In this document: piece by piece, positions 19,901 to 64,000 of the stretch
How the letters are laid out: each line of letters begins with the position of its first letter
How positions within the stretch are numbered: the stretch's first letter is position 1
Assembly: GCA_965644265.1 (NCBI GenBank)
Contig: OZ286460.1
Coordinates: 99,944,001 to 100,008,000 of the forward strand
Length of the DNA: 64,000 nt
DNA from: Glycera tridactyla
Lineage: Eukaryota
Direction of reading: 5' to 3'
Translations under genes and position numbers: made by a program
Notes under the pieces: generated by a model
Databases searched by the model: none
What the model was told of the DNA's origin: nothing
Seen by the model: only the letters and a program-made list of their open reading frames with translations

Positions 19901-22900
19901 AATGGATGGATTTGTTTTGTAATTTGATACACTGATGAAGAAGGAGGTAAGGCTGTTCATTTGGTGATCAAGATTTCCAAATTTTGTCTTTGTGACCTAT
20001 ATGTCTGTTGCATGAGATACAGCCTTCCGAGATGTCAGACTAGTCCCTGTTGTGGAAACAGTAGAAATACTTTTAGGAGAGTGACATTTGTGTTCAACTC
20101 TCCTAAAACTTTGTGAAAATTCCTCACCTCTCAGAAATTCATTAATGACATTTCTCTGAAAAGTGCAGCTGGAATGATCAGAGAACAAAATTTTATAAAA
20201 TAGATATGTGCTTGGAAAATTGAGTTTCCTGTTTCAGTTTTCAAGATATTTACTCACAGAAAAAAACGCTGGCCCATCAGAAAACCCAAGTAGTTGGGAG
20301 GCTGGATGATATATTTCTAGAGAGGAGGAATATTCCATGAGAAAAGATGTGTTTGGTGAATATGGATACAGTTGAACCTGTCTATAGAGGCCACCTCCAG
20401 TCACATAAAATAGTCGACTTTATATGCAGGTGGTCGTCATAGAGGTCATTCGCTGTTGAAACTACTGTCACGGTCGCAGCTCAGGGTGGCCTTTTTCTTG
20501 ACAGGTGGTCTTTACAGAGAGATGGTCTGTAGAGCAGGTTTGACTCTATGTGATGTTTGCTGGGTCAGTTAGACCATGTCCTGTGAGTTTCTCAACCATC
20601 CATTTCCCCTCACCACACCTACACCAGATGAAATTATTGCTCATCATGAACCTCCTTAATTTTTGATATTATCTCAGGGAATCATAATGAGCATGCATAC
20701 CACACGGTCTTGATTGTGTATATTTGCTAAAAAAAAAAATGCTTTGTCACTCACGCCAAAAGTAAATTTCCACAGAACAACCTGCTATATTTCTTTCAAA
20801 AATGAGACATGATCTGAGAGACCACCCTAAATGTCGCTAAAATTTTGTCTCAAAAGAGGTGGTCTCTCGTCGGAGATATATTTGACTATGTTGAATGGGA
20901 AAGCTGCAATGAATCTCGTTGAGAGAGGGGGCGGTTCTCATCGCAGGTTTCACTGTATCTATATTATTCAATCATGTTCAGAGGTCAGATGAAATGTGAG
21001 GCCACTTGAATATTGACACCCTCATTGAAAGTCCACATCACATGATCAACTGTTGGACTTGACCCCAATGTTTTCTTGGCCTAGTTTTGCACCATTCTTT
21101 AGATTCCGATATTTATGCCACATCTTAGGTGACTCATCATATATGTGTATACTGTATATCATTTGTATATTTAACGAGGTTGAATGAAGATTATTCTATT
21201 GAATTCAAATCCATAGTGGCAATGTGTCCATCCCCTTACACACCTCCTCATATTGGAGCTTTTGGGGCTGAATGTCCTCCATTTGGGGAAGACCAGAACC
21301 AAATACATTATATTTCCCAGATTCATTTATCTGCATGATCTTGAGTGCAAATTCTTGTCAAATTTTCACCAGAATTTTCACTTTGACCATAGTTTCCTTG
21401 TGTGTGTCCATTCAACCCACTCCATGTACCTTTCATTTATTCATCCTTTTGACTTCATGTACTTTTGACATAGTTACTTTTTGGTCTGTCTCACTGTAAT
21501 GTTCTTGAAATCTTCATAAGAAAATATAGAAATCTGGCTGCTGAAGTGAACTTCCGTGTGTTGATATTGAGCAAACTGTGTCTTTACTTTTTAACCCTAC
21601 TCCGTCTCCTTAGGAACATATTGTGTTTGCATTGTCCATTGTGTACAACTCATAATCACAAAACTGCAAGGAGTATTACAACATCGCTATTTTGACATAT
21701 GAGCTGATTGTTTCTGGCAATATTCTTCGAGACAATACAACTGGATGCAGATTCTCTGTTCACAATATCTTTATAAAGTTCCTTTAATCTGAAATTCATA
21801 AACTGTCATTCGAACCTGTTAAAGACCTTTCAAGTGCATTATTCATTGATTTTAGTTAAATTATTCATTACTGGTACCTCACTGCTGTGGCAAATTACGA
21901 GAAGCTACTTTGTTGGGAAATCCATAAACAGTTATTCAAACCATTTTAAGATCTTTTAAACACAATTAAAATTGAGTTTAGTGAAAGTGTATCTTTAATA
22001 ATTCTTTACTGCAATGGCTGTTGATCATATGGTCCAGATTGATACTTAATGAAATTACAGTGGAACCTGTATTAAGCAACCACTTTTTCATTTCCCAAGG
22101 GGGGTTGCTGAATACAGGTTATATTGTACCATAGGTAAGGCCATGGAAATTATGTTGCAGATAGGGTGATGAGGAAAACAAATTTCCAGGCTCATAATTT
22201 GACTTCGCCTTGATGTATTATTGAGAATACCTTCAGCTGGTATATTTCCATCAATTTCTGTTGCAAATATGATGTCATTGTGTGATACATTCATTCAATC
22301 CATTAGGTCATTATCGGCACCCAATCCATGCCTCAATTCATCTTTGTCTTTCTCATGATTATGCCAACTATATGGAAATCACTCTCCAATCACTGTTTTT
22401 ATACCCCCCCCAAACGAAGTTAGGGGGGGTATACTGGAATCACCCCGTCCGTCTGTCCGTCTGTCCGTCTGTCCGTCTGTCCGTCTGTCCGTCTGTCTGT
22501 CTGTCCGTCTGTCTGTAGACGGAGTCGTTTCCGGATGATATCTCAAGTTTGCCTTCACTCATTGATTTCATATTACATATACACATCACCCATATAGAGA
22601 GGAGGAACCCTATTGTTTTTGGGGTCACTAGGTCAAAGGTCAAGGTCACAGGAGGTCACTTCATGGGAAATCACATCTTCGGCTCCTCTGACCTTAATTT
22701 TCAAGTAATTGCTCTCATATTTGGTATGTGAACAGTGTGTCAGTATCTATCTCACATAAGTTCCGGGTTTTATGATGCAATTGTTACTTTTGGCGTCATG
22801 GGGCTGAATGTTAAGGTCACTAATACAATCCATGTATGTACAAGCTGCCAGTGTGTAGGCAGAATGGTTTCCGGATGATTTCTCAAGTTTGCCTTGCCTT

Positions 22901-25900
22901 ATTGATTCCATATTACAGGGACACATTACCCATACTAAGCAAAAGAACCCTATCGATTTTGGGGTCACTAGGTCAAAGGTCAAGGTCACGGGAGGTCACA
23001 TCACTGGAAATCACATTTTTGGCTCCCCTGACCTCAATTCTTGAGCAATCGCTTTGATATTTGGTATGTGAACAGTGTGTCGCTATCTATTCCACATAAG
23101 TTCCGGGTTTTATGATGCGATTGTTACTTTTGGCGTCATGTCACAACCCATTTATAAGCTGCCTGTGTGTAGGCGGAATGGTTTCCGGATGATATCTTGA
23201 GTTTGCCTTCCCTTATCAATTTCATATTACAGGGACACATTACCCATACTGAGCAAAAGAACCCTATCGATTATGGGGTCACTAGGTTAAAGGTCAAGGT
23301 CACGGGAGGTCACATCACTGGAAATCACATTTTTGGCTCCCCTGACCTCAATTCTTGAGCAATCGCTTTGATATTTGGTATGTGAACAGTGCGTCACTAT
23401 CTATTCCACATAAGTTCCGGGTTTTATGATGCGATCGTTACTTTTGGCCTCATGTCACAACTCATTTATAAGCTGCCTGTGTTTAGGCGGAATGGTTTCC
23501 GGATGATATCTTGAGTTTGCCTTCCCTTATCAATTTCATATTGCAGGCACACATCACCCATACTAAGCGAAAGAACCCACTCGATTTTGGTTTCACTAGG
23601 TCAAAGGTCAAGGTTACAGGAGGTCACTTCACTGGAAATCACATCTTCGGCTCTTGACCTCAATCCTTGAGCAATCGCTTTGATATTTGGTATGTGGACA
23701 GTGTGTCGCTATCTATTCCACATAAGTTCCGGGTTTTATGATGCGATTGTTACTTTTGGCGTCATGTCACAACCCATTTATAAGCTGCCTGTGTGTAGGC
23801 GGAATGGTTTCCGGATGATATCTTGAGTTTGCCTTCCCTTATCAATTTCATATTACAGGGACACATTACCCATACTGAGCAAAAGAACCCTATCGATTAT
23901 GGGGTCACTAGGTCAAAGGTCAAGGTCACGGGAGGTCACATCACTGGAAATCACATTTTTGGCTCCCCTGACCTCAATTCTTGAGCAATCGCTTTGATAT
24001 TTGGTATGTGAACAGTGCGTCACTATCTATTCCACATAAGTTCCGGGTTTTATGATGCGATCGTTACTTTTGGCCTCATGTCACAACTCATTTATAAGCT
24101 GCCTGTGTTTAGGCGGAATGGTTTCCGGATGATATCTTGAGTTTGCCTTCCCTTATCAATTTCATATTGCAGGCACACATCACCCATACTAAGCGAAAGA
24201 ACCCACTCGATTTTGGTTTCACTAGGTCAAAGGTCAAGGTTACAGGAGGTCACTTCACTGGAAATTACATCTTCGGCTCTTGACCTCAATCCTTGAGCAA
24301 TTGCTTTGATATTTGGTATGTGAACAGTGCGTCGCTATCTATTCCACATAAGTTTCGGGTTTTATGATGCAATCGTTACTTTTGGCGTCATGAGGCTGCA
24401 TGTCAAGGTCACAGGGCACAATTCGCCTTCATTGATAGCGGCGAGGGGGGGTATTAATTTGCCTCTGGCAATAGCTCTAGTTTTGTCCTGGTTCCACTGT
24501 AGCTAAAATTTGGTTTGTTTGTGAAATTCCGGGTTATGATTTTATCATTTCACTGCCTGAATTGTTCTTGTTGGAAATTTTCCTGTATTCTGTCCATTGA
24601 AATGGAAAGAACATATTGTATTCACGGGAAGCTGATGCTCATTCGCCTTCTGCTATCTAAGGGGAATGCTTTTATCAAAGGTTCCTTTTTTCCGAATATC
24701 CTCAAGTTGATGAATTTCCTCTCTTCAGTGATTAGCAATTTAACAAAAAACAATAATATAATCGCAATTTATTGAATTCAGATCATATTCTGAGGTTAGC
24801 AGAACTCATGCGCTATACTCTAGGTTACATATATCAAGGTACAGTTGAACCTTTCTATAAAGACCGCCCTCGGTCGCATCGAAAGGTGGCCTTTATAGGG
24901 AGGTGGCCTTCATAGAGAAGTCATTTACTGTTGAAAGTACTACCACGGTCGCAGCTCACGGTGGTCTTTATAGAGAGGTGGTCTTTAGAGGAGGTTTGAC
25001 TGTATCAAGGTAGTTGTTAATGTACAAATGGTTTGAGTATTGCAATAATTGCATGGCATAAAGCACCTATAATGTATCTATGGTTCTAGGCTCTTCTGGA
25101 TGCAGGAGTGCTCCCTGGCTCAGACCTGACCTCTGAGGCCGCTTTGATGAAACTCAGCTACGTCCTCAGCTTTGAAGATGAAACAGTGGATGAGAAGAGG
25201 CAGGTAAGTGATATGTTGGTGGTTTTAGAACCACGCATCCTGAAATCTGCTATTCTTCCGTGACATTGTGTGTGAAAATGCAACTGTTATAAGAATGGCC
25301 TTGAATGAGCAATTCCTACCTGGTGCCTTTATATATTCTGCTGAAAATAAATTCTGTTATGTGACCACCTTGTGATCTATGCAGATTGAATCTCTTGCAA
25401 AACCTGCCACAGCATTGCATGTCAATATGCATCTTCACTCATCAAGATCAATATCTTCGTGGTAAGAGTGATCCCCAGTGACAGGTGATTAGGTGACACC
25501 ACATGATCACGATTCCTTATTTGATCGATGGTGGCCTTTGAGATGGTGGCACCTGCTCCATTGCTGTGTAATTTTGATGCTGGTATTCTTGCTAATCAAG
25601 TCATTTCAATATAAAAATGGTCCTATAATGTAACAGCAAAACTGCTGTGACTACCACAGCAACAGCAGTAGCAGTGATGATCCATTGTAATGGTAAAATT
25701 CCAGCATCTAGAGCAGTGGTGATGATAGCAGTTGCCATGTGGCATTGATAGGAGCAACCTCAGAAAAATGCACCTAAAACACAAATGCAGAATCTTGGGC
25801 AGAATCATGGGCTGTAGCAGAAGCAGCACCAGCAGCAGGAGTAGCAGCAGGGGCTGCCACAAAATCAGCTGAATAGTGGCAGAAGCAGTGGTTTCTAGTT

Positions 25901-34400: not shown

Positions 34401-37400
34401 TTCTGCCCTTATTCTACATTTGAAATTGCCCTCAATTTTGGAGTTTGTGGATGCTTTTCTGCATATGTACGTAGAGTGGGTGTGATGGAAAATAATGTAC
34501 ATGTAGATTCATTACAGTCTAACCTGTCCTAAGCAGACACCTGCCCTAAGCAGCCACTTTATTCCAGAAGGGCGGCTGCTTAGAGTAGCTTTGATTGTAC
34601 TTGAGGATGCTCTTTGTGATGAATTTGGTGAATTATCAAATAGAGCTTGAAGGCTTGAATTGCAGTAACTAGGTGAAGGACTAAACAATAACCGCCAACA
34701 CTTTCAGACAGTAACACTGCGGTTCAAAACAGGCATTTACAGCTGATTGTGTGAAAATTCGCTGGACAGTTGGTTGTTTTTAATCCCATAAGCACAATCT
34801 GGGCCATATTGAGCTGCCCATACAATGGGCATTGGTCCCCTAATGGAAGGTGAAAATTATGACATTCACAGACACACATGGTTTGCTGAGTTGGGCATAT
34901 TCCTTGAACTGATATTGAGTGGATAGAGGATGGCATATGTACTGTACATGAACAAGTACTAAATTTCAGCTTTCAAAAGCTAGCCAGTTCAATATTTTTT
35001 TGTATGACACATAGTTTGTGGTCAAAGCTATTCACGAATCTGTTGCACCTCTCAAATGTTAACATGAATAAAGCAGGAGTGAATCAGGAGCAGTCCCTTG
35101 GTTTCACAAGTGAACATGATTTCTAACATCTGGGAGCAGGGCTCCTGCTCAGATAGGTGACCAAAATGGATGGAGGTAACCATTCAAGGCCAGACCTGGA
35201 GTATTACACAGATCTATATGATATGTGCTACTCAATAAGGAGGCATCTCAGTGTGAAGGTGACTATTTGGAACCTGTGTACTCCAACACTGCTCAGAAAA
35301 GTAATTGTAAACTTGGGTGAACTTGTTATACGGGACTGTAAACCACAACATATATTTCATAAAGGCATGGAACAGTTATATACATTGTACTGTGGTCAGT
35401 CAAACACCATCTTATTTTGTTCAGCCCAATTTACTGATTAGAGTAGCTACCAACTATAAGGATAAAATGAGGATGTATGCCTGTGTACAAGTATAATTGG
35501 CCATTCATATCTATCGCAACAGCTAAAAGCAACTTGCATTTATATAGAATGCCCCAAGTGCCGTGGACGGGAAGGCATTAAGTGCTGAGCAGCCTGTCCC
35601 AGGAACGCACAAGTGACCGCAGACCACAAGTTGCAGCCACGAGTGCCTTCCCGGGGCAGGATGCGAGGCACGTAATGCCTTCCCATCCACAGCACGAGGG
35701 GTATTCTGTATTCATCATCCGATAAATGGATAGTATTACCTTCAATTTGCTGTTTGGAAGGTGAAAATCGGAGCAGCGGTTGATGAATCACAGCAATTTT
35801 TCTAGAGGCATTTTCCCCAACTATTTCCGTGACGCTACACAAATTGAATGCGCAGACGCTACCAGTTGACCTTTGACCTCGATTGTGCTATGGCCAATCA
35901 GCAGTGGCGGGACAATTACACGACGCTTGATGTAACCTCCAAGATTACGCGATCCATATGGATGTGCACCGTGTGCGGCAATTACATGCACACTACACTT
36001 GACATCGGATGATAAGATGCAAATACTTACAGCTCAGTTGCAAAGTATAGCAGTCATGGGGAAAACAATGTTTTGATTTTCTAAGGCTGTATTGGATATG
36101 ATTACAGCCGGGGACTGAGGTCAGTATATGTGTTGATGTCAGAAGCCAGAATTTATTTTTCATTTAAAAAGTCCAGTACAGTCTAAGCTGTCCGAAGCAA
36201 CCACTTTACTAAGCAGCCACTTCTTGTTTTCCAAAGAGCAGCTGCTTAGAATGCAGACAAAGCTTTCCATTATGGAATGATGAGAAGACTTTTTGATTAA
36301 ATCCCCAGTAGATCAATCTTTGGCTTAGAAATACTGGTAGCCTCTACTTTGCAAGTATCTTACTTGGTTTTGTTTGTCATTTTCAATAGCTGCTTTCCCA
36401 GAATTTGAGAGGTGAAATGAAAGTTGCGATGCCACTCAGTCGTTCCCTCAAGCAGTTCACACTCATTGAGTCATTGGCCCAGATGATGAAGATCAGCTCA
36501 TCAGAGGTAAGTGCTTTTCACCCTCTGGTCAGGGAAGTTTCACGGTACTCATAGTCAACTTTAATGGAGCGAAACTTTCATTTGTACCCTTTCGCCAAGC
36601 TTTGGCGAATGCGATTGTCAGTTTGTGTTATGTGACCTGTTGGCAGAGGTGGGGTCACATCATATGATCACCCCAAAACTCATTGGCAGGGTGTGTAGAC
36701 CCCGGTCCCGATTTAGGTTTGGTTGGTGTTGAATGATGTGGATGGCCTCTGCCATGCCTCTTCAGAACCAATCCTGTTCCTGGTGGAGCATGGTGATGTT
36801 TTCCTCGGAGAAAGTATGTTTATGTGAGCACATATGCAAATGACCTCAAGAGAAGGTTTCTGTGTGTTTCTTGGATTCCACCATAGTTTAGCACTAACAA
36901 CCCCCTGACTTGGACTGACAACCAGCCGTGATGATCTGCTGGTAAGATATCAGTCAATGTTGCCAAAAGATCCAGAGGATTTGTAGTTTTGCATGTTCAC
37001 TCCTTAATTGGGGATGATCTGCATTCAGTAGTGTGATGCATCAGTGTTCTTCATGGGTCATTGTTACAGCATTTTCAGAGAGGTTGAATGTCAGTAGATA
37101 GCAAGGGCACACCTGAGATACTTGGTACAGTGAACATGTTCAGTTTCGAAAGGGTGGCTGTGGAGTGCTATGAAAGTTGGTAAGTCAGTTGGTGTGGATG
37201 GTATCTAGCCCTCGTTCTTGAAGATTGCATCTAGTAAAATTGCAATTCCAGTTGCCCATATACTGAATATGTCCCTATTAAATGGTATTGTGCCGGATGA
37301 CTGGAAGGTTGCATGTGTAACCCCCCTATTTAAAGAAGGGAGTCGGAATGAAGTTGGGAACTGTAGACCAATTTCGGTATTACCCGTAATGGGGAAGCTC

Positions 37401-40400
37401 CTCGAGAGATTCGCTCATTCTCAGCTTTACTCGTTTCTCCATGAAAACAATCTCTTTGTGCCTAATCAATTTGGTTTTAGGGAAGGTTTCTCTACTATGT
37501 AGAATATCCATCTTGAACGACGTATATCTTGGGATAGACCAGAGACTTATAACAGGCATGGTATTTCTCGATTTGAAAAAGGCCTTTGACACTGTCGACC
37601 ACAACATACTGATTGATAAACTTGGTCAGTATGGGGTGGTCGGTGGTGTCAGGGCCTGGTTCAGGCACTATTTGAAGGATAGGAAACAATGCACCAAGTT
37701 TAGATCATCTATTTCTGAAGTGAGATTTATTGAATGTGGGGTACCACAGTCCATTTTAGGACCCCTTTTGTTCATCATCTACATAAATGACCTCTGTCAA
37801 ATGATTCAAAACTGTAAGATTGCTATGTATGTGGATGACACTGTAATATCTTGTACTGGGGAATCCATGGAGCAGGTTGAAAATATGCTTCAGCAAGATC
37901 TGAGTGAGGTTGAATTTTGGTTAAGGGCAAATAAATTAACCCTGAATGTAAAATAGACAAAATCCATGCTGTTCCACTCTACTGACTTCAGGGGCCAGAA
38001 ATTCTTGCAACTGCAAATGAATCATGAGGCAATTGAGCCAGTATATAAATTTAATTATCTTGGAATTTACCTAGACCTGACTCTAAATTTCAATCATCAT
38101 ATTGACCATGTTGTCAAGAAATCAAAGCGCAGACTAGCTGCAATAGGCAGGGTAAGAAAATTTCTTGATCTTAAGATAAGTCTAATGTTATACAGGTCCT
38201 TAGTGGTCGCACACTTTGACTTTGGTAATGTTATATATGGAGAGACATCAGCCTCGAACATGAAGAAGTTGCAAATACTGCAAAACAAGGGTCTTCGTAT
38301 GGTCTGCTTGGTCGATAGGTATTCATCAGCTACGAATCTCCATATCAGATTGAAACAACTTACTTTAGAAGAACGTAGATGCTTTCACTACTGTGTTTTC
38401 ATGTATAAAATCAGAATGGGCCTTATAAAGTCTAGTCTGTTATCTGATTTATTCAATTGTATCTCTCTGATTAATAGCTATGCAACCAGAGGGGCTGACA
38501 GGGGCGACCTTGTGGTCCCCTGACTCCGAACATCATTTTGGTGTTTGGAAGAAAAAACACAAGACAAAAATTTCCAGTTTTTGGTAAATTTATTGTAATA
38601 AACCTAACTGGTAGGATGACGACATTCTTATATTTCATGACATATTAAGAAATATTCACGTTGACATATCTCCCTCCCCCCCATTAAATATCTATCCCCT
38701 TATGTTTCAATCATGTGATATTCTACCATATTCAGTACCGACCAGTTACCTTGCTCGATGCAAGATTGAATGCTTGTAATTATGTAACCATGGCAACGCT
38801 TTGAATGTAATCATTGATGTCATCCAAAAATAAATATATAATACACCATTACTAGTTTCTTATCTCTCCAATGAAATTACCTGTTAATGTGAAAACAATG
38901 AGGAAGATAATCCATGTTGAGATGCTGAATTCTATGCGAAAAAAAGCCAATGATTCTTAGTCCGAACCTGCAATTTTGAGGTTGTCAAGCAATTGATAAT
39001 TGCTCTCTGCTAAGAAAACAAACCCAACATGGTTTCAAAATTTCCAGTTTTTTCACCAAAAAATTCCCTCCATCATTTCCCTGGTACATATTGATGGGAA
39101 ATAATTTCCCACCACTCTGCCCCCTGGAAATAATGGATAGAATTTATTCCTGTGAGAGAAATATGTATATGTTGTTGATGTGTATTGGTCAAAAATATTT
39201 TTTGACCTAACCTTATGTACCTTACATGAAATATCAAATATCAATTATGGATACAATAAACATCAAAAATTGGTCAGTCCACACACAGTGTGCACCAATC
39301 CATAAGCATAAGGTGTAAGGGGATGGGTTGGCGGGCAAATTACTTTGAAAGACTGGCTGAGATCAAGTGTTTCGCGCCTCGGGACTCGTGGACACTGCGC
39401 AGATTCATTGAAGCGTGTCCACCGCGTCCCCTCCCACATTAGGCTCACTGAACCGGTTGTAGTTGTTACCAGTCAATACAATCCAACCTGTTTACGATCA
39501 CCTCTGAAAAAGTTTTTTCTTCCATTGTCCAAAATGCATTGTTTGGTAAACAATTTGATTTTTGGTGTTTGGAAGAAAAAACACAAGACAAAAATTTCCA
39601 GTTTTTGGTAAATTTATTGTAATAAACCTAACTGGTAGGATGACGACATTCTTATATTTCATGACATATTAAGAAATATTCACGTTGACATATCTCCCTC
39701 CCCCCCATTAAATATCTATCCCCTTATGTTTCAATCATGTGATATTCTACCATATTCAGTACCGACCAGTTACCTTGCTCGATGCAAGATTGAATGCTTG
39801 TAATTATGTAACCATGGCAACGCTTTGAATGTAATCATTGATGTCATCCAAAAATAAATATATAATACACCATTACTAGTTTCTTATCTCTCCAATGAAA
39901 TTACCTGTTAATGTGAAAACAATGAGGAAGATAATCCATGTTGAGATGCTGAATTCTATGCGAAAAAAAGCCAATGATTCTTAGTCCGAACCTGCAATTT
40001 TGAGGTTGTCAAGCAATTGATAATTGCTCTCTGCTAAGAAAACAAACCCAACATGGTTTCAAAATTTCCAGTTTTTTCACCAAAAAATTCCCTCCATCAT
40101 TTCCCTGGTACATATTGATGGGAAATAATTTCCCACCACTCTGCCCCCTGGAAATAATGGATAGAATTTATTCCTGTGAGAGAAATATGTATATGTTGTT
40201 GATGTGTATTGGTCAAAAATATTTTTTGACCTAACCTTATGTACCTTACATGAAATATCAAATATCAATTATGGATACAATAAACATCAAAAATTGGTCA
40301 GTCCACACACAGTGTGCACCATACCAACACAGTTGGTCGACCAATCAAATCTTATAGTGTAATCATCTGGGGCCTTATATACTTCTTGTAAGCCTGAGAC

Positions 40401-43400
40401 TTCCATCTCCCAAACAACCGGAGATCCTCATCTGATACACCCATGGCTGCTCTTTCAGTAGTAGCCCCTATCCGAAAACTATGGGTACCATAACGATTAG
40501 GGTTCAACCCATTTATGGCAACAAATTTCTTCAACATGTGAGCAACCCAGTTAGACTGTACAATTGACCCGTTCATTCTGAGAAACAAGAACCCTTCAGA
40601 ATTCCCTCTAAGTGTCAAATATCTATGCAGTGTCATGACTGGGCATAAACATGAGTTGGCCTTGCTATTGATGCGAATGCTCACTGGTTCTTTTGAATGC
40701 TTAAATGTCCTTAATTGAATGATATAAGCAATCAATCTACCACCGGTACATACACTGCTCAGATGGCTGACTCTTATGGTGTGTTGAGTTCCATCAGTGG
40801 ATGAAACAACCTCACCAATGCGTAGGCCTGCAATGAACATGATTGCAAATATTGCTTGAAGTAGAGCCTCATCCCATTCACTAATTATTGATGGGTTCAT
40901 ACAAGCAAAAATGCTTGACAGCAATTCAGTGGTGATTGGTAATCTGGTGTCTGGTGTCATGCCCTGTTTCCTCATTCCCATTAAGAGTTTCTTTATGTAA
41001 AAAGAATCCACCGGGTTCTCCATTGAGCGGATGTTATGGGCATAGGCAATGGCTGATGCCTGGGATGTAACAGTTGAAGGTTTAAGACCTTTAAAAAACA
41101 AATGAGTCAAGTATTTTCCCACCAACATGTTATCTGCTGGCATTACCAAATCTTTCCCAGTTAATTCTTTTGAGAAAGTCTGGAACTGACTCCATACTTG
41201 TTCATAGTTTGCAAGTGTTCTTTGTGATAATGATGACTGTATTAAGCTGTTCATAACCCGATCCAGTTCTTTGGCAGGAATGTATCTGGGATGGGATCGC
41301 TTTGTGCCTGCATTCCTTTGGTTGCCAGCTCTTGAGGTGTAACCTGTAATCGGGATATATGATCAGCTGTAGTATTATAAATCCCTGGCACATGCATAGC
41401 TACCATACATATGTTGCATTGCAATGCATTCAGAACCAACTGTCTGACAAGTTTCATGGTGCGTGGGTTTTTTGCTGTTTGTTTGTTAACTATTTGTACA
41501 ACCGCCCCATTATCCGTGTGAAAAACTAATCTATGATTAGCCATCTTTGGCCCATACATGACCATGGCAATTACTATTGGATAAAGTTCCAAAAAGGTGA
41601 TTCCAAACTTTATCCAATCTGACGGATACTGTACAACAAACCATTTGGAACCATAAAAACCCCCACCCCCAATAGCTGATGCATCTGTGTAAAAATGAAT
41701 GCTGTTGGAATGTATTGGTTCTTTAAATAGAAAAAGTGTTTTCCCATTATATGATTGTAAAAATTTAATCCACATAGACAAGTCTAGTTTCATACCCTGT
41801 GAAATTCTGATTTTTGACATTGGGTTGGTCTTGCCCATCATTCCATCGATTAGGCGGCGGAGAAATGGTCTACCTGGTATAACGACCATACAGGCCCACT
41901 GTAAAAAACCAACAATTGACTGCATCTCTTTCAATGTGGAAGTGCTTCTTATCAAAAATTCTTTAACCGTGACTAAGTATTTCTGAAGCTTAGTATCAGG
42001 TAAGGATGCAAACATATCTACAGATGATAACTGAATGCCCAGAAATTTAATTATTTGACTGGGTCCTTCTGTTTTATCTGGTGAAAGTGGCATGCCAGTG
42101 ATTGCTGCCAAACGTTGGAATTGCTCCAATGCTTTTTGACATTGTTCACGTGTTTTGGCAATGAAGAAATAATCATCAAGATAGTGGAGCATATGTGAAA
42201 CCCCCATCTTTTCTCTGAGAATCCACTCTACTGCACAGGCAAAACTCTCAAACAATCTACATGAAGAAGCACACCCCATCTGTAAACATCGATCAACATA
42301 AAACATGTTATCAACCTTGAATACAAATAAATGATACTGTTGAGGCTTTACAGGCAACAAACGGAAAGCTGACTTAACATCAGCCTTTGCCATGTATGCA
42401 TTATGGCCCAATTCTAATATCAGCTGGATGGCATTCTCCACAATTGTATATTGTACTGTAGAAAAAGAATCAGAAATCCCTACATTGACTGATTGCTCAT
42501 TGTATGGGTAAGAAAGATCATGAATTACCCTAAATTGCCCAGGTTCTGATTTTTCACGGATTGAAAGTGGAGATACATGCATGGTTTCAAATGGAGCCTG
42601 TTCAAAGGGGCCAACCCATCTATCCATAAGGAGCTCCTTTTGGATAAATTCTTTCACTACTTTATGATGTTGTAGTGCCAATTGTGAATTTCTAGGTGCA
42701 TGACATTCTGTGTTACCCACAAAACCCACGTCGAACCCATGTTGGAAACCATTAATGAGCTCAGATGCTTTGTCAATGGGGTACCCTTCCAATAAATGAC
42801 TCAACTCAATCGGTCTTATGGGACTCGGCATCTTGCTTGGGTTGAGTCTTGCTCCCTTTAGATTTTTTGCCAGCCCACTTGGATTTGGCTTTACAAGTGT
42901 ATCCGGGATGGACAGCTTTTTTGCATTTATGGCATTCATGGTTGAAGCCACATTTTTTCCCCATCTTGCATTTTTTCTGGGGGTTGTGATATGCAAAGCA
43001 GTATCCACCAGGTGGGTTTTTGTGCTTGGTTTTTGATGGTGTGTCACTCTCACCCCCATCCATGGATTCCTGGTCTTCTTTAGGGGTAGAATCTGATTCT
43101 TCCTCAACAAATGGGCCATTTTTCATTTTTTGTTTCAACAACTCATTGAAAATGGTTTGTCGAACCACACCCCATGGTGGTATCTTTTTCAACCTCAGTC
43201 TTTCATAGCGAAAACGCTTGTCATAGTACAACCAGTTCATGCCATCTTCCCTGAGGTTGCGGATAATTCTACCATAAATCAGTAGAGCCTGTTGTTTCTT
43301 GGCATGCAAGGGATGTTTCAGATAATTTGCCGAATAGATCTCCCAAGCCCTCCACCACTCACTAAATGTTTTAATCGGTTTGCGATTTTTTGGGGTTAGG

Positions 43401-46400
43401 AGCATAGATTTATCTCCATCAATGGACCTATATGATACTTCATAATTTTCATCCGGTAGGTCAACCAGCAAATCTCGAAATTCAAAATAAATGCCAGACT
43501 GTATCTTTTCTATCAAACGAACATCAATATTTTCTCCCACCTGCATGTCATCCACCCACATGTCATGTAAGTCAGAATCTCTATCAACATGACATGGCAT
43601 GCCCTGTGTTGGGCCACCAATTGGAGCAACAAATTCTGCTCCAGTTGGTATCCCAGTCTGTTGGAGCCTGTCCATCTGGTTGACTATATTGACAACTGGA
43701 ATTTCTGAATGATGTATGGTGGGTATAGGATTACCAACTTCAGGAGTTTCCTCCCGTCGACGGTCACGTAAAGGTGTGAAATGTGTGCTTGTACTAGGTT
43801 GTGGAATCAAAGGCAACTGATGGTTCTGAGGTAACTCACCATAGCTAGGTGGTTGCACATGGTTTACAATAAAACCTGTACCACCATGACTTACCATTTC
43901 TGGAACTTCGGGCATGTTTGTTATAGGGCCAGATAGCCCCGTACTAGTTGTATTATTAATGACATTTGGTTGTGACCCAGAGGGTGAACATAACCCTCGA
44001 TTGATGGCATATTTTGAAATGAAAGCCTGACTGTTCTGTGATGACATAGCCACTGTTGGTGGTGATGGTACAGTGGTAGTAGCTGTATCAACAGGAACAA
44101 TATTGCTGGGGGGTAACATAGCAATGGTCTGACTCTGAAACCACTTTTCCTGCATAAGGCTTATGTTCCTTGCCGTGGCCTGCATCTCAGCCATGGTTTT
44201 CTGTGCTTGAACAAACCACATGTTGATCCTACGATTGGACAAGGTGGTCTGTGCTGATCCCTTGGCTTTTGGTTGTTTCTGTGATAATTTCGACACCATC
44301 CTGCGTTTTTTGGGCTTGGTTGCCTCCTGGATGGGTGACTCATCATCGACAAACTCAACCTCGGGCTCAATCAGCTCAGGCTCACTATCAGAACTCAAAG
44401 TTTGTTCTTTACCTGTTTCACAAGGCTGTTCCAGTTCATTAGACTCATCCTCACCCACTGGATCTGCATCTAGATGTGTATAGCTACGACCTTTTTCAGT
44501 TAAGATACGCCTTCTTTTTGGTCGACCTGCTCCCATACTGCCTGATGTACAGGGTTGCTCATCGCTCTTTGCCGACACAACCATACCCTCGATTTCAGGA
44601 TCAGGATCCTCATCCATAGGCTCCAACTTCATTTTCTTAGGTGGCATCTGAAAACATAAGTAATAGTGTATATCGGCATGAGTTTCATTGCAATGATTCA
44701 ATTCTGTGATCAGAGGCGGTGTCAGTCACCAATCGGTCCAAATAACTTTTTTGGCCTATCTGATGTATCATCTGGTTATGGGAAAAATTAAGTACCAACA
44801 ATTATCAATCATAATTTGCATAGTCATATGCTGTATTATATTTCCCTCATGTGATATTCAATGCCGATCACCAAGTATGCTTCCTTCATGTTACCAATAT
44901 TACAAAGTCCGTAAAATATTTTTTACCGTGTAGTGTAACATGTTTTAGCAAAAAATATTCATCATCAACTGTACACCGATTCAATGAGTGCTCAATCCGT
45001 GATGTGACCGTATCTGGATCCTTCGATCATGCCATGACACAAAGTGTTGCTCCGGTTTCATGAATGAAAATATTTCCAGAACCCAACGAACGAATCATTA
45101 TACTCACGTTCAACACCCCAACTATCGATGACAGTTCAACTGATGATGCAATGCAAAGCAGTATGGCTAGTATTTCGATCGCAATGTGAATACTCTGATT
45201 CCAAGTTCGGTAATGAATGATCTACTATTTTGGCGCCAACTGTGGCGTCTTAAACGCTGCCGGTGATTGGCTCAATATGTCACATGACCAGTTCCGGGAT
45301 CCCTCCGACTTCGATGACGTCATCGTGGGGGATCCCGGGCCGAATCCGTCCGAAAAAGAGGCCGGAGAATCCCGAACGTCCCATGCGTTCAGGCAGCCAT
45401 ATCTTCATTCGGCGTGTTATACATCAAAAATAAATGTGACTGATACACTCACCAATGATTACATTTGCGAATGTCCATCTTTACTCGAATGCAACTCTCG
45501 TCTTGACATAATGGCCCACTCCTGCCATTATAGCCTTGCGAATCTGGAAAAAGAACTTGCGGAACGAAGGGTCTCGCCATGTTCTTCCTGGATGCAAGTT
45601 GTCGGGCGACCATTGAGCCACCGGTAGCGTGTCTCCCGTAGGCGTACAAGTGAATCCACGGATATGGAAGTAGTGTATCCTTCTGCGAAACTGGGCTTGT
45701 CTAGCTAGCTCCATGTTGAAACGATCCATGAGTTTGATGAAATACTGTGAAGGTGCCGTGAAGCCAGCCTCTCGTTTCAATACTGACATAAAGACCACAG
45801 TTTCGACTTTGTCAGCCGCCATCCATGTAAGTGCATCATCGATGAAGCGTTTCGCCAGTCTTTCCGGTGATCCTTGTCCTTCTCGAAGCATGTTGCACAG
45901 CTCGTTGGAACCCATATTTATCACTGTAATGTTCGGAAACACGTTGAAAACACGGTCAAGAGACAACTTCCATGCAGTCGTCCCGTAGACGTACGCCCAC
46001 TCCACTTGTATCTGAGCACACTTCTGATCAAGCCACATAGCCTGGGCACACTGTTCGGCCGGCGTTCCGAAGAAATATCGCTTCTGCGCCTCGTTGTAGC
46101 AATGGCTTCTTAGGTCTCGAATGAAAGAGTTCCCGATAACTCCTACTCGCACCCCGGGCTCCGATAGCGGGTATTCGTCGTACATCTCTTCGACCATGCT
46201 GACCCGTGTTGTCTCTCCAAATTACTTTGAAAGACTGGCTGAGATCAAGTGTTTCGCGCCTCGGGACTCGTGGACACTGCGCAGATTCATTGAAGCGTGT
46301 CCACCGCGTCCCCTCCCACATTAGGCTCACTGAACCGGTTGTAGTTGTTACCAGTCAATACAATCCAACCTGTTTACGATCACCTCTGAAAAAGTTTTTT

Positions 46401-49400
46401 CTTCCATTGTCCAAAATGCATTGTTTGGTAAACAATTTGATTTTGGTAATAGATCCTTACTTGCTGCGGGATCCAGAATATGGAATTCTCTGGATCCAGA
46501 AGTGAGAACTTCAGGAAGTCTTGGTATCTTTAAGTCAAGATACTGGAAATCGAAACCATCCCCGTTCATGTTGTTTGAGTGATGCTCTGTGGTTTATTTA
46601 TCATGACTATTTTTGTGGTGTCATTCAACAGTGAAGTATAAGAGTGTTGGAAGAATCCATAGTTATTCTCTCATATTTAATCTCTCATAATTTTCCATAA
46701 AATCTATCTATCATACCATATCTGAAATAGACTGTCTACTCATAGCCTGATGGCGTGAATCTCAGCACCGAATCAGCGCATATGGTATTATTCATATGGC
46801 ACTGTCTCTGAAGGTGGTGATCGAATGCTCTCAGAGGGCCAAATTTTAAACTTCATTTTTTTTCAATAAACTTCCATCAGGTGTTGGTACCCTTAGCCTG
46901 GGACATCAGGTTCTGGTCATAGGAGCACTGAATCCCTGTATCCCTCAAACATATACAAGCAATTATCAAAAGTTTGGTGTCGTAACACTTTTTGCCAGTT
47001 TGGGAAAAACCAGTTGTGCAATCTTTAATTATGCATTGAGCTGATCACTATTTTGATACATTGTAACTTGGTCTCATATGCCGACCTTATGATAGAACCA
47101 GCTCTGTTGAAAGATTTTCTACCTGGATGCATGCAAGACAAAAAGGCTGGTGTTGTAACAGGACATAATAGCTTTGATTGGGTATAAAAAATAGAAAAAA
47201 GATTCTGAGGCAATCATAATGCTACATCAGAATGTGTATGGACAAGATCATGTCCTAGTTACAACACATATATTATTTTCACATCTTGCTTTATTGGAGA
47301 TTCCCTCTCACTGTTTCCTCCATATTTCTTCAGGTTCTTCTCTCTGTGGATAATATCTTCAATGTTATATCACTTCTGTGATCAATCCAGGCACAGAGAT
47401 TGGAAAAACCTGCATGAAATCATTATAAAAATCAAGTAGTATGGTGTTGTAAGTGGACAGTGCCATATCTGCCACATTTCATTGCATGTTACACCAGGAT
47501 TTTGCATAAATTATCCCTAAGGTATCATTCAATCAATCATGAGATCAGATTGTTGAGAAATGGCTGTTTCAACACAGAGAAGGGATTAAAGTCTGTTTTG
47601 TAAACAGGACAGTCCAGGTTACAACCGGTGTTGTAACACAGGACTTATTTGGACACCTTATTTATATAGTGTGATAAAATCGTTTGTTTATCAGTGCTCT
47701 GATTCTCTTTTGCTTTTAACACATATATGGCATTGAGGAGAAAAGGAATGTGTGAGACATGTATGTTACATGAATTTGGTTCCATGGATTGGACAGGGGG
47801 TCAAATTTTGGTGTTGTAACAAAACAAATTAGGACATTATCTTTGAAATCATCTCAATCAGTATATAAATGGAATTTTTGCCTGATTTTTTGAAATGATT
47901 CAAGATGGGTGATTACCTTGATAAAGGATATTTTGTTGGCAGAATATCATTTGCCAAAAATACCAGGTGGAATGCCACTGGTGTTGTAACAAAAATACCC
48001 AAATTAGTTACAACACCTTCAGTCACTGATATTTTCCAGATGAAGGGTTTTGCAGGAGCACAGATAGTAAATATGTGTGGACATGGTGGTTTTCTTTCAT
48101 TTGACACCAAATTTGTGGGGTTGTATTGTTCTGCTGCCAGGATATGATTTTTTTTAAATAATGGGGTTGATGATTGTTCCTCAAAATAGCCAATTTTAGG
48201 GTTATTTTCGCACTTTGACATCTGATAAATGATGGTTCTCATTGAGATATCATCTTGAAATTGGAGCATATGATAGAGAAATATGTACTGTCTTATTTAG
48301 TGAAGAGTTGGTGCAATTATATTCACATGGTTTGTAATGGCAGTTGTTTTACTGATTTGGACATTTTATCTTAGGCGCGATCACCACCTTTAGAGACAGT
48401 ACCATATATATATACCAAATGCAGAATGATTATGTATTACCCAAGACCCTGGTCGTAGCCAATATCAGCCCAGGCTGGTTTTTCTCGATGTCTCGACAAG
48501 GTATCTCTGTTACGCGAAATTTTGCTACATTTCACTAGGTTAAATAAAGTCTATGTCATTCTGTCATTCAGAATGATTGTCCAGCAATTGTCCATCTGGT
48601 AGGGCTGATGACTGAAATAACACAGATAATCTGCAGGGCTCTATATTGGCAAAAATATTTAGGAGCCAGCTGGCTCCCAATTTGAATTTTTGGTAGCCAG
48701 TGCAAAAATTTGGTAGCCAATCAATACATTTCCAATTACATCCTTGCCAAACTTTTGGGGCGACTGGCTCCTAACTTTCAAAATATGGTAGCCGGAGGGT
48801 AAATTTGGTAGCAATTGGCTCCCCACAGGTAGCAACGTAGAGCCCTGATCTGAGACCTAGATGAACATAGAATCTTCCATCCACTGCACATGTTTATTTT
48901 GCCAAATTAAGCTGGTGGTTATCTGACAATTAAAACTACCTATTACTTGGTCAAATGGTAAATGATAGTAATTGTTGAATACAAGCCCTGTTACCATTCA
49001 ACTTGAGCCCATCAGGTCATTGCATCAATTAAAATGAACATTACGAAGAAAAACTCACAACTATCTTTTCACTAGATGCTTGGATCTTTTCTCAGGATGG
49101 TGAAACACTAGATTCATCCTCATATATGCACCCTTAGCTCCAAATATGTCAAGGTCATTGATCAAGCATATAGAATTATTGGTATCTGAGCCTGTCTCTC
49201 GATTTTACTTGTCTTTCCTAGCAAACATTTGTAGCAAATTCTCACTTCAAAGGCCACTTTTTGATGTGACCGAAGGTGTTCTTTATAGACCGATCCAACT
49301 GTATATTATAAATGTTATATTATGACGCATCTCCCATTGTGCATCTTTGCATCTGATAGAGCTGCTTCCACTTATGATGAAACTGATTGAACATGTTTCA

Positions 49401-55504: not shown

Positions 55505-56016
55505 GGAATGAGAAGCATGGTCCAGATTTAACAATATTTATTGAAACTCGAAAAGAACATAGTAACGGTACATATTACTACAATCTTTGTCAAAATGCAC
55601 AGTGTCTAATATACAAAACACCGTATACATGTATCAACACGAGGGAGCTAATGTTGTATGCAGGGTGCAGACATTTTGAAGCAAATGCAATTGGAAGTCC
55701 CAACCGGAATCTCTCCACAGATGATCTCAGAAACCTTTTCAGATATTTGGCTGGCCTATGGTGACTAAGTTGTAGTCTTGTTATCATTAGTATTTGTCAA
55801 GATAGGATGAAAAGATGGAGAAGTTTGCACTCTGTATACTACATCCCCGGCCAAAACAACAGTCACTTAGAGTCAGAGTCTCAGTCATTCAACTCCCTTC
55901 CTATTAAGGGTTACTGGTACCTTGTGTTTTGTTCATCTTCACTGCTGTTGTTGTCAATGTCTACATACTATCTTGAGTATCACTGAGCATACATACTTCG
56001 ATTTTCACTCAGATCT

Positions 56017-57082
56017 GTACTATAGCAAGAATATATGGCCGTGAAGTAAAAACACAATACCAAACAAGGTGTGAATTTTGCTGGATGTCACGTGGCCGAA
56101 AGCCGAGTGACATCCAGCGAAATTCACACCGAGTTTGGCATTGCGTTTTCACCTCACAGTCATATATTCTTGCTTTCATCACATGGATCAGGGGACAAAT
56201 CATCAAAAAATAGTTCTCACCTAGCTGTGAAGTATCACGCGCAATACTCAACACCTGATACTTCACTGAAAATAACACATCCATGTGATAATGAGCAATA
56301 CTTGCACTGGGCAAGCACTATTACTTTTCAAAAGTAGCCACTTTCCGTACATCCAATCTGGATACTCTTCACTTTTTTTTTGCATGGACTATGCATAAAC
56401 ATGCTTGAAGCACATATTTTATTTATTTCACTTGAACCAGATTCTAACCCAGTTTTTGGTGCATCGTAATCTGAGTGCAAGCATGGATATATATTGTTCA
56501 AATTATACCCAGTACCTAGGTCTATTTGCATATTAGTTTTATGTCTATCTACTGAAGCTGCACCATTCAATGAAGTGGATGATTGGATGATTGGATCTCA
56601 AGCACAGCAGAATGGTTGGTTATATTGTAAATGATGTAATAATTATCACAGGAATTTGTAAAGGATTATTGAGAGATGGTCTATGCTATATTGTTACACC
56701 CATGTAGTGAGCATGGGACGGATCACCCAAGACACCTTTCCCAAGGTTGACAATGGAAGGACAAGAGTGTGTATTTACACACCATAGCAATAGATATTGG
56801 TAAGGGAGTTTATCGCATGGATGTGCCATTTTCAGTGAAGGATCAGGTGTTGAGTATTGTGTGATACTTCACAGCTGGATAAGAACTACTTTTAGATGAT
56901 TTCTCCCCTAATCCATGTGATAAAAGCAAGACTATATGGCCGTGAAGTAAAAATGCAATACAAAACAAGGTGTGAATTTCTCTGGATGTCACTCGGTCTT
57001 CGGCCTCGAGACATCCTGTGAAATTCACACCTTGTTTTGTATTGCATTTTTACTTCACGGCCATATAGTCTTGCTATAGTAC
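56017..57082. mobile_element. Fold-back element with ~280-bp inverted arms, each itself palindromic (Crypton-like MITE?)
   Basis: 56017-56300 is the reverse complement of about 56805-57082; each arm folds around GGCCGAAAGCC / GGTCTTCGGCC. Confidence 0.7.
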
Positions 57083-58504
57083 ATTGACAGCTTGGGTGAT
57101 TGGGTATGCACTTTGAAATTCCATGAAGGACATACGATTGGGGCAATTTATAGCCACTTTCTGGCAGGAGTAAGCTCCATTTTAGGTAGGGAGTATTGTC
57201 TGGCATCTATTGAAGCACTAGTAAATATTACGTTATTTACATCTTACTTCTGAACTTCAAATGACTAGTTTGTATGCTATCATATATCTATGTAATCCTC
57301 TATTACACATTGTCAACTATTGAGTGATGGTTATTAGACACTTGAATTCATATGATTATGTTTATTTTTGCTAAACTAGTCTGCTGTGGAAAGGTGCTGA
57401 TTTTGAAGTATTCAACTGTATATTTATCCTATTTTATTTCTGGTGCTGAAAGAATCAAGTGTTTCTGGCTGTTCTTGACTTCTGTATGCATATTTTCTCT
57501 TCAACATCAACTTGAATCTCTAGAATCAGTATGTGATATTTATCATCAGCTCTATTGTTCCTTATGTAGGTTGCCGATTAACCTGTAGACGTAGGAGTAC
57601 AGTGAGGGATGAAGTGCTGGTCCATAACTGTTGTCTTTTACACCCTATTATAACTACTTTCATGGCTGGTGCCATGCTGGAGATCCCAGCTCCAAATCCA
57701 CAAAAAAAGTGGATGATTTCTGAAAATGTAACTTGTACATTTCAATGGTGTATCATGAAACATAGTTTCATCTTATTTTCATGATGTTAGAACTACTTTT
57801 ATGACCAATATATGACAGTCAAAGTTGAGAACCCTGGCGTGGGAAGGTACAAATTAGATATCACTCTGCGATATTTGCAGAAATATTTATTCTAGATTTC
57901 AGCATAACGAGAACCGTAAGTGCATATAATGTCTATCTGTGATTGACATGGTTTGTAGTAATACTACTCGAGGATGGGATTGTGATCATTCATTGATCTG
58001 CATATTTCTGTGATTTATAGTAAATGTAGTCATCCATAGTGACAATGGCCATTGCATACCTAATGTTTTGGTTTTTAAATCATGGAAATTTGCCCAGAAT
58101 TAGTGGAACTGAGTGTATGCAGATGGTTCGACACATCTGCCACTTTGATGGTCATGTGTCATTCTTTCCCCTTGTCACATGTTGCAGTAATCATGTTAGA
58201 TGAGTTATTAACACCTTGGATATCACAGAAAACATCCTACAAGGCTGAAAGACCTTTTTTTTTTGTTCTTTCAGACGAAGTAAAGAGAGAATCTCTTTGT
58301 AAGGTTCACTAATGAAACTTGTCCTTTTTGAGACTAAATGTTCAGAGAAAATTTCTTGGTATGTGTCACCTCAAGAGAGACCACCCCTTTACCAAGATCT
58401 GAAGATGCTCTCATCTGGGGGTTATGGATGAGAGACCAGTAAAATGCAGGATAAGCCTGTCTTGTGGATACTGCATGCACTATCGTGGATTCGATAATTG
58501 ATCT

Positions 58505-62369: not shown

Positions 62370-62760
62370 GTTCTTGCCAGTGACCCTGAGATTTGACCTC
62401 AATACGCCCAGAGTAACAATGGCGGGATCAAACCCTGAATTCATGTGTGAAAGATTGCAATGGGCAGCTCACATACCAAATATGAAAACATTTAGTGAAA
62501 AATTGAGGTCAGAGGAGCAGAAAATGTGATTTCTAGTGAATGACCTCCCGTGACCTTGACCTCTGACCTAGTGACACCAAAATCAAAGGGGTTTTTCCTC
62601 TCCCTATGGGTGATGTGTGTACATGATATGAACTCAGTAAGTGAAGACCAACTTGAGATATCATCCGTAAACCACACCATCTACAGACAGGCAGCTTATA
62701 CATAGGAGGTACCAACAACCCTGACCTTTGACCTCGTGACACCCAAGGTAACAATCGCAG
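62370..62760 (-). repeat. Fragment of the 22.4-24.5 kb HINE core repeat in reverse orientation
   Basis: TGACCTCCCGTGACCTTGACCTCTGACCTAGTGAC is the reverse complement of the core motif; the surrounding sequence is also similar. Confidence 0.75.
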
Positions 62761-64000
62761 GATAAAACTGGGAATTTATGTGTGAAAGTTTGCAATACAC
62801 AGCCCACGAGATAATAGTAAATACAAGTGAAATGATCACTGGGAGATGGCACACCAAGTCACTGACCATTGAGGTCATGCCAGTGGATCCTGATATTGGA
62901 ACATGTTTTCTCCATTTGTCTTCAACAAAGTGGAGCCTCAGAGGGACAAAGACTATGCATATACTGTATACATATACCACCTAATTCAAACAGAACTCTG
63001 GTCGTCACTCAAGATAGGAAGGTGGGGCTGCGCAGACCCTGGGATAGAGACACTGATCTGTCTAGTATAGTCACTTCATAAAGAAGAGAGGGAGGAGCCA
63101 CAGTATCTACTGATGAAGGTTGAGAATAGAGCTCTTGGCAAGAGGCTTGGGAGAAGACCCGGTCGCATCACCAGTACACAGTCATGCTCATTGCATGGGC
63201 GTCCCAATATAGCGCAAATGGAGCTGACGTGACTTAAAAACACAACCAACCAACCTAGCACCACCAGTGTCAATGTGGGGTGTCCCTGGGACAAGTGGAG
63301 CAGTCGGTATGTAAGGGTGAGTATTGAAACCAGTGGGGAACGCACACATGTGTTTTCAGGCACATGGCTGCCAAATAGTTTGACTAACAGAGAAAACATT
63401 CGGCAAATGTCCCATCATGTATCCTCAAGTGCGACAAAAAAATAATGGGGACCAGTATTCCTTCACAAAATGTTGCAAAACATTAGCAACTGAACAGCCT
63501 GCAGGTCATGTCATGTTACAAGCCGTGACTTCCACACCATTGCAGTTCATCAGCGAATCAAAGAAGTGATCTTATGTCTGAGTCATGGCTTCCACACTCA
63601 TGTCATCAACGTTGAACTGCGAACTCAACAAAGCCTGCTGAGCTTACGTACCATCACAGTTGATGTGGGAACTCAATGGCAGCCTGTTGAGCTTGTGGTA
63701 GTAGTGATGGTAGCCAGGGTGAGGATGATGATGACGACGAAAATAAAATAAAATAAGAACAGACAAGCATTCAAACGAATGAGCACAATACTGGATGAAT
63801 GGATATGGATGCTCATTTGAACATCATCTTGAGTGGATTCCCACAAATGACACTTTGAGTGTCTGCGAATTTCATGAATTCTCACCTTCCGTTTGGGACC
63901 CAGAAGGAGGAGTCTTGGAAGATCCCATCCCTGCCTATTGCACGGACGTCACAATATAGCCCAGATGGTGCTGACGTGACGTCAAACCAGAACCAACCAA

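Follow-up and report, generated by a model that had tools for sequence, protein, structure and literature searches.

The window analysed here, a stretch of 64,000 nucleotides from Glycera tridactyla (contig OZ286460.1, positions 99,944,001 to 100,008,000), carries on its minus strand, at 38537-46442, what its sequence identifies by published definitions as a young Ngaro-type tyrosine-recombinase (YR) retrotransposon, lodged in the remnant of a long interspersed nuclear element (LINE). The present analysis concerns the way in which this element and its relatives in the same genome join host DNA. The element, 7.9 kb in length, is organised as A1-open reading frames (ORFs)-B1-A2-spacer-B2, and repeat comparison places A1, the 5' end, at 46218-46442, B1 at 39561-40321, A2 at 39336-39560, a unique 38-bp spacer between A2 and B2 at 39298-39335, and B2, the 3' end, at 38537-39297. 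As exact matches, repeat A comprises 227 bp (39336-39562 = 46218-46444) and repeat B 762 bp (38536-39297 = 39560-40321), both pairs being 100% identical; the A1/A2 match reaches 46444 because two target bases agree by chance. The outer ends were set via the cut position inferred in other families, with an ambiguity of one base in the window copy. The repeats are therefore split direct repeats (A1...B1 A2 B2), and the inverted terminal repeats and internal complementary region of DIRS1-like elements are absent.

All four ORFs of the window element are open. The first, at 45481-46197 on the minus strand, lies upstream of gag and would encode an SGNH/GDSL-hydrolase-like protein, with a Pfam Lipase_GDSL match of E 0.016, which is below the cut-off, and Atlas matches of 0.94-0.96 with GDSL families on 21-63% of members; a hydrolase-like ORF upstream of gag was also observed in most of the distant families of the same genome. 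It is followed on the same strand by a gag-like ORF (42806-44647), recognised by its position and Cys/His-rich end and without a Pfam match, by the ORF for reverse transcriptase (RT) and RNase H (41251-43122; RVT_1 E 3.7e-17), which terminates about 30 residues past RNase H, and by the YR ORF (40352-41362). The latter combines a Phage_integrase match (E 1.5e-5) with a Cre-like predicted fold: the model has a pLDDT (predicted local distance difference test) of 93, its best structural matches are Cre, with a TM (template modelling) score of 0.67-0.74, and the catalytic residues R, K, HxxR, W and Y are invariant across 37 homologues. No Pfam match to a methyltransferase domain was found up to E 5 across the four ORFs, and lack of that domain separates Ngaro from DIRS1 and PAT elements in the published descriptions as far as available.

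The host LINE retains a reverse-transcriptase remnant on the plus strand, with a left part at 37209-38536 and a right part at 46443-46582. It carries stops of its own at 37500-37502, 37954-37956 and 38521-38523, plus a frameshift, and was therefore dead independently of the insertion. On the same strand, the left junction CATCA-TTTT-GGTGTT has 4 T (38536-38539), the internal B1/A2 junction TTGA-TTTTT-GGTGTT has 5 T (39559-39563) and the right junction TTGA-TTTT-GGTAAT has 4 T (46441-46444). An earlier note on this DNA had given the same counts, which proved exact on re-reading, and had deduced from them an empty site of 3 T, a LINE frame restored across that site, no target-site duplication, and no net gain or loss of bases. 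These deductions are borne out. A search of the genome itself with the left LINE flank gave 35 matches, with 30 loci fetched, and the sister LINEs nearest by left flank (L032-L035, 85-95% identity) read TCATTTGGTAAT at the site, that is, with the predicted 3 T; the reading frame continues from the left to the right part over the 3-T site, and no target-site duplication was found. Alignments of paralogues across the site had the same length in 12 of 13, the exception showing a small duplication and a few loci being counted twice. As the sister LINEs have both a 3-T site and the same length, the conservation argument is right, and the insertion into the host LINE is conservative, with zero host bases gained or lost. 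An alternative count, in which a 4-T circle and a 4-T target share a 3-base core, is ruled out by the same sister LINEs. As to the orthologous empty allele, none of seven runs considered contained half of the words, and no piece in four public contig sets over 37000-48400 spans the site, which is uninformative either way. Other insertions in repeats could be compared with empty paralogues in the fetched DNA as well, and 11 of 13 gave exactly one base between the flanks. In the window, this single base common to target and junction, hereafter position 0, is 38536, a T on the plus strand and an A on the element strand.

Taken alone, such a base-exact reconstruction is ordinary, expected behaviour of the order DIRS, for which conservative integration without duplication is the model set out in the available text of two published accounts (PMC3266345, PMC7192593). 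The earlier attribution to YR-mediated insertion is supported, in that this is a YR element and its two ends exactly rebuild the internal B1/A2 junction. The further claim, that the junctions directly support integration of a circle, is not supported, since any precise conservative joining yields identical junctions and the sequence of a circle junction is indistinguishable from that of the internal one.

More is learned from the other copies in the genome, of which 95 with both ends were used. Fifteen belong to the window family (from 32 matches to repeat A and 35 to repeat B, 30 loci being fetched for each), 55 to related families (100 YR loci, of which 44 were without a split-repeat call and one, L139, was dropped as a tandem repeat), and 25 to distant families (60 loci, 35 without a call), with YRs 29-38% identical. 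The YRs of 81 elements form 30 groups at 70% identity, in a tree that holds only copies from this genome. The YR query of the whole genome gave 3208 first-look candidates, 120 of which were scored. Many Ngaro copies in the genome have repeats 99-100% identical, and many families have therefore been active recently.

In the first 70 copies, from the window and related families, the internal junction on the element strand reads C-A-A-A-A(0)-N5-ATTG, and position 0 is A in 70/70 of the 3' junctions and in 68/70 of the 5' junctions. No match was present at -1 in 28/70 copies and none at +1 in 52/70, so that a single base is shared and the crossover occurs without slippage; the identical trinucleotide in junction and target known from DIRS1-like elements is not found here. 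The fixed crossover position was observed likewise in the 25 distant-family copies. A one-base offset in the T-run, as proposed earlier, appears only when the GGT of the target is aligned with that of the junction, a register that is not used, the crossover being constant in all copies.

Moreover, crossover at the far side of the spacer was seen in 0/95 copies, the longest right-hand match being 4 among the 70 and 3 among the 25. Exchange of both strands over an unmatched spacer would leave copies with a far-side crossover, unless repair were biased, and the one-sided pattern of junction and target speaks against reciprocal two-strand exchange. Conjugative-transposon integrases tolerate an unmatched spacer. 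A duplex circle with a short degenerate site might be used in a similar manner, both strands being exchanged and the left crossover always being kept by repair or replication, with the inverted repeat described below serving as paired protein sites or as an accessory site. It is the published model for DIRS elements, to judge from the available text (PMC7192593, PMC3266345); in addition, the recombinase is Cre-like, the duplex junction forms a weak palindrome about a 6-bp spacer, and W-T occurs at +6/+7 of the targets. Nevertheless, with the second crossover absent from every copy, and in view of the hairpin and mismatch results given below, we regard this explanation as rather unlikely.

Target preferences were then compiled for the 70 copies. 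The inferred targets prefer G at -5 (43/70), where the junction has C, followed by C/A, A/G, A/T and A/T at -4 to -1, and on the other side A/T at +6 and T at +7. Junction and target match in 161/280 cases at -4 to -1, against 76 expected, and in 87/350 at +1 to +5, against 91 expected, which is chance level. Because G is preferred at -5 where the junction has C, the likeness is read as protein preference rather than homology, and we infer that a target preference of approximately G/R-C-A-W-W before the cut, with W-T at +6/+7, represents protein readout. The "target mimicry" of the earlier note, with ATTTGGT as the shared sequence, does not hold: the sequence occurs in 1/70 targets, the window's own, which in the true register mismatches the junction at -5, -3 and +1. 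A weaker, one-sided likeness at -4 to -1 is real. In that note's model, a 5-T circle pairs with a look-alike ATTTGGT target and undergoes reciprocal crossover with a one-base slip in the run. Its arithmetic holds, its 3-T site is real, and the likeness of target and junction at -4 to -1 is above chance; yet the run of A is a single base long in 22/70 inferred targets and the crossover position does not move, so that the model is largely refuted by the copy survey and appears highly improbable.

A repeat search showed that an inverted repeat spans the internal junction of the window element. On the minus strand, the 71 bases of the B1/A2 junction at 39512-39582, with position 0 at 39560, are predicted to fold into a hairpin of three stems, namely an outer stem of 13 bp (39570-39582/39512-39524) followed by a 4x4 loop, a middle stem of 6 bp (39560-39565/39529-39534) followed by a 5x3 loop, and an inner stem of 7 bp (39548-39554/39538-39544). 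The predicted fold has a z of -3.7 on either strand. The same three-stem hairpin is predicted in all 71/71 junctions, with the crossover at the stem-loop border. In the close families, 46/46 distinct junctions fold with z <= -2 (median -5.4), and in the distant families 25/25 do so (17 with z <= -3), with inner-stem sequences that are unrelated; control windows from the same repeats (n=116) had a median z of -0.1 to -0.4, and 23/116 reached -2. Position 0 is paired in 46/46 of the close-family folds and +2 in none, the loop adjoining position 0 is 5x3 in 41/46, and some 14 bases separate the crossover from the centre of the fold-back. The complete hairpin is present only where the B end joins the A start, as would be the case in an end-to-start intermediate.

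The structure of the predicted hairpin is kept while its sequence varies. In 23 aligned junctions, 15/25 pairs change on both sides, which 0/500 shuffles reach (the shuffles ignoring relatedness), and the cells paired in this test lie above all slid controls. A comparison of 13 families gave -11.5 kcal/mol for the pairing of own arms versus -6.6 for swapped arms (permutation p 5e-6), the own arm being the best partner in 9/13. In a plain alignment the outer stems are not in register with one another, and RNAalifold accordingly recovered the two inner stems only. All of the predicted folds (46/46 and 25/25) show the arrangement characteristic of integron attC sites, in which structure is conserved and an unpaired spacer lies between two stems. 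The junction hairpin is likely the site where the recombinase cuts and joins. With regard to the duplex circle, arm pairing kept despite sequence turnover would be unneeded for binding sites of one protein, and the centre of the fold-back is displaced from the crossover.

It is also conceivable, if improbable, that the hairpin has an earlier role, at the stage of RNA or first-strand cDNA, where it would prime or stop RT or hold the ends for a template jump and thereby fix the ends, a linear or circular copy then integrating at a target A chosen by the protein. A hairpin has been proposed as the primer of DIRS-1, whose cDNA is linear, single-stranded and antisense according to the available part of PMC7192593, and a slight sense-strand excess of G-T over A-C mismatches would also suit RNA. 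Such an early role leaves unexplained the fixed 5x3 loop between two stems, the T that constantly faces position 0 (see below), and the one-sided target preference resembling the stem beside the cut.

A search of the genome with the junction pattern gave 74 matches, against 0 for the reversed control. In metagenome contigs, the YR query found no relative, and the 11 matches to the junction pattern, which all lacked RT, YR and the outer stem, were taken as chance. No description of a Ngaro junction hairpin was found in the literature searched, which did not extend to the founding Ngaro paper or to reviews by its authors; the word "hairpin" occurs 0 times in PMC8547959, PMC9210276, PMC3266345 and PMC3783388. 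Several loci carry more than one complete junction hairpin: L135 (G000:C34:47049670-47052807) and L173 (G000:C26:44493125-44495177) are tandem arrays of B-A units with four and three, respectively, about 1 kb apart, and L094 has two. Such arrays could result from unequal crossing-over or from repeated use of the junction.

Natural variants at position 0 allow the role of the opposite arm to be evaluated. The base opposite position 0 is T in 25/25 distant junctions. Seventeen distant copies have A at position 0 and A in both flanking junctions, and seven, in two separate clades, have T at position 0, facing T. These seven were considered together with nine more copies of the same families, three of the nine being typed by their 5' end, with the internal junction not fetched. 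The 5' junction of the T families carries the element's T in 7/7, and likewise in the further 5' ends; at the 3' junction, 13 of the 16 copies have A, two have T and one has C (p 2e-5 versus background; A versus T, p 0.007). In one of these copies, L229, an empty paralogue identifies the A of the 3' junction as the target's own base. The pattern places the cut just 5' of position 0. Tyrosine recombinases form a 3'-phosphotyrosine, and the free 5' end leads the spacer; with this polarity, the cut would fall on the sense strand. A duplex circle requiring identity would pick T targets, whereas the T families have A, to which a folded strand would offer a T partner. In terms of the one-nucleotide identity of the integron type, the A families have a shared base and the T families are as expected from pairing with the other arm, but the G families are not, and the targets of the latter agree with the plain preference for A or T that a duplex circle would allow.

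Overall, the best reading of these data is an integron-like single-strand exchange from a folded end-to-start junction, rather than from a plain double-stranded circle, and we hold it to be probable. The sense strand, either single-stranded or extruded from a duplex circle as a cruciform, would fold so that the 6-bp and inner stems flank the unpaired 5x3 spacer. The recombinase would cut just 5' of position 0, both on the folded strand and on the duplex host target, and the first freed base of the target, nearly always A, would be checked against the T on the other arm of the hairpin. One pair of strands would be exchanged, and replication or repair would complete the insertion. The folded sense strand would need to originate in second-strand DNA or in a cruciform, because the single-stranded cDNA of DIRS-1 is antisense. 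A broader proposal, to which we give slightly less than even credence, is that Ngaro elements integrate by an integron-like chemistry which evolved independently in eukaryotes, with a Cre-like recombinase that reads a folded single-stranded junction by its shape, checks one target base against the other arm and exchanges one strand, the target base being reprogrammable via one hairpin nucleotide.

Several observations weigh against single-strand exchange from a folded junction. Where position 0 is G (four copies), the targets are T (3) and A (1), and where it is C (one copy), the target is G; pairing with the opposite T fails to explain these cases, and a protein that simply prefers A or T at the target would fit too. 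In two of the 70 copies, L178 and L187, the 5' junction carries a base other than A at position 0, and 2/13 of the empty-paralogue comparisons (75-89% identity) deviate from one base. Regarding the strand, both fold equally well, the antisense being more stable in 21/46 junctions; G-T and A-C mismatches number 28 versus 15 (p 0.07), and these are not independent. The single-stranded cDNA of DIRS-1, in the available text of PMC7192593, is of the strand opposite to the one inferred here. Moreover, the T families let only one of the two swapped ends pair, and a mismatch of this kind costs integrons 3-4 logs, according to the accessible part of PMC2811028. No integron integrase is among the 29 structural matches listed for the recombinase model. 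Finally, every copy surveyed comes from one genome, and all of the evidence is drawn from sequence. For the distant families, the rule that fixes position 0 was adopted once an initial automatic one had proved to shift the register.

Other repeats were observed in the window. To the right of the LINE, the stretch at 46789-48412 is bounded by two inverted copies of a 35-nt repeat, spaced 1554 nt apart, shows high depth in all four contig sets, and is probably a high-copy DNA-transposon-like element. A tandem array with a unit of about 314 bp lies at 22509-24415, with an inverted relative at 62377-62807, near the window end, and at 56016-57083 an inverted repeat (276 bp, 87%), parts of which form palindromes of 151 bp, resembles a miniature inverted-repeat transposable element.

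According to the available text of PMC7192593, the specificity of DIRS recombinases is unexamined by experiment, and the circle junction could not be amplified. The integration step becomes testable with oligonucleotides, since the survey names the position and strand of the cut, a substrate of 71 bases and mismatch variants that occur in nature. Should the proposed mechanism prove correct, animal genomes too would host the recombination of folded single strands that bacterial integrons display, and an enzyme that integrates multi-kilobase cargo without a scar under a loose target rule would be of interest for genome engineers.

We then compared the window element with known systems, limiting statements on published work to the portions of the cited accounts that were available. 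With the Ngaro elements, such as Xenopus DIRS-53_XT and the Cafeteria Ngaros, it shares the split direct repeats A1-ORFs-B1-A2-B2, gag, RT/RNase H, YR and an SGNH-hydrolase-like ORF, as well as the lack of a methyltransferase match and of a target duplication (PMC9210276, PMC8547959, PMC3783388). It differs in its 38-bp spacer between A2 and B2 and in the position of the hydrolase ORF, which follows the recombinase in the Ngaro of amphibians and precedes gag here; moreover, the junction hairpin, the cut position and the target rule do not appear in those portions of the same three accounts. DIRS1-like elements are alike in conservative integration via an end-to-start junction without duplication, but they have the inverted terminal repeats and internal complementary region that the window element lacks, share an identical trinucleotide rather than one base, and are assumed to use a duplex circle where a folded strand is inferred here (PMC3266345, PMC7192593).

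A precedent for the junction is offered by integrons, whose attC sites recombine as folded strands through one strand exchange (PMC8946536) and require identity at one nucleotide only (PMC2811028). Recombination of attC with attI resembles what is proposed here in the imperfect hairpin, predicted in our case, whose tip varies and whose two stems enclose an unpaired spacer, in the retention of structure while sequence varies, in the cut beside one paired base, in the one-nucleotide identity as far as the A families go, and in the footprint of a single-strand exchange. Unlike integrons, the element is a eukaryotic retroelement with a Cre-like recombinase of no demonstrated kinship to IntI, its junction reads CAAAA/TTTTG and has no GTT/AAC triplet, an extra outer stem is present, targets are scattered and follow a loose consensus, and the use of one strand is suggested by the sequence footprint (0/95 far-side crossovers). 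Altogether, the Ngaro junction most likely works like the integron attC system, without being a member of it.

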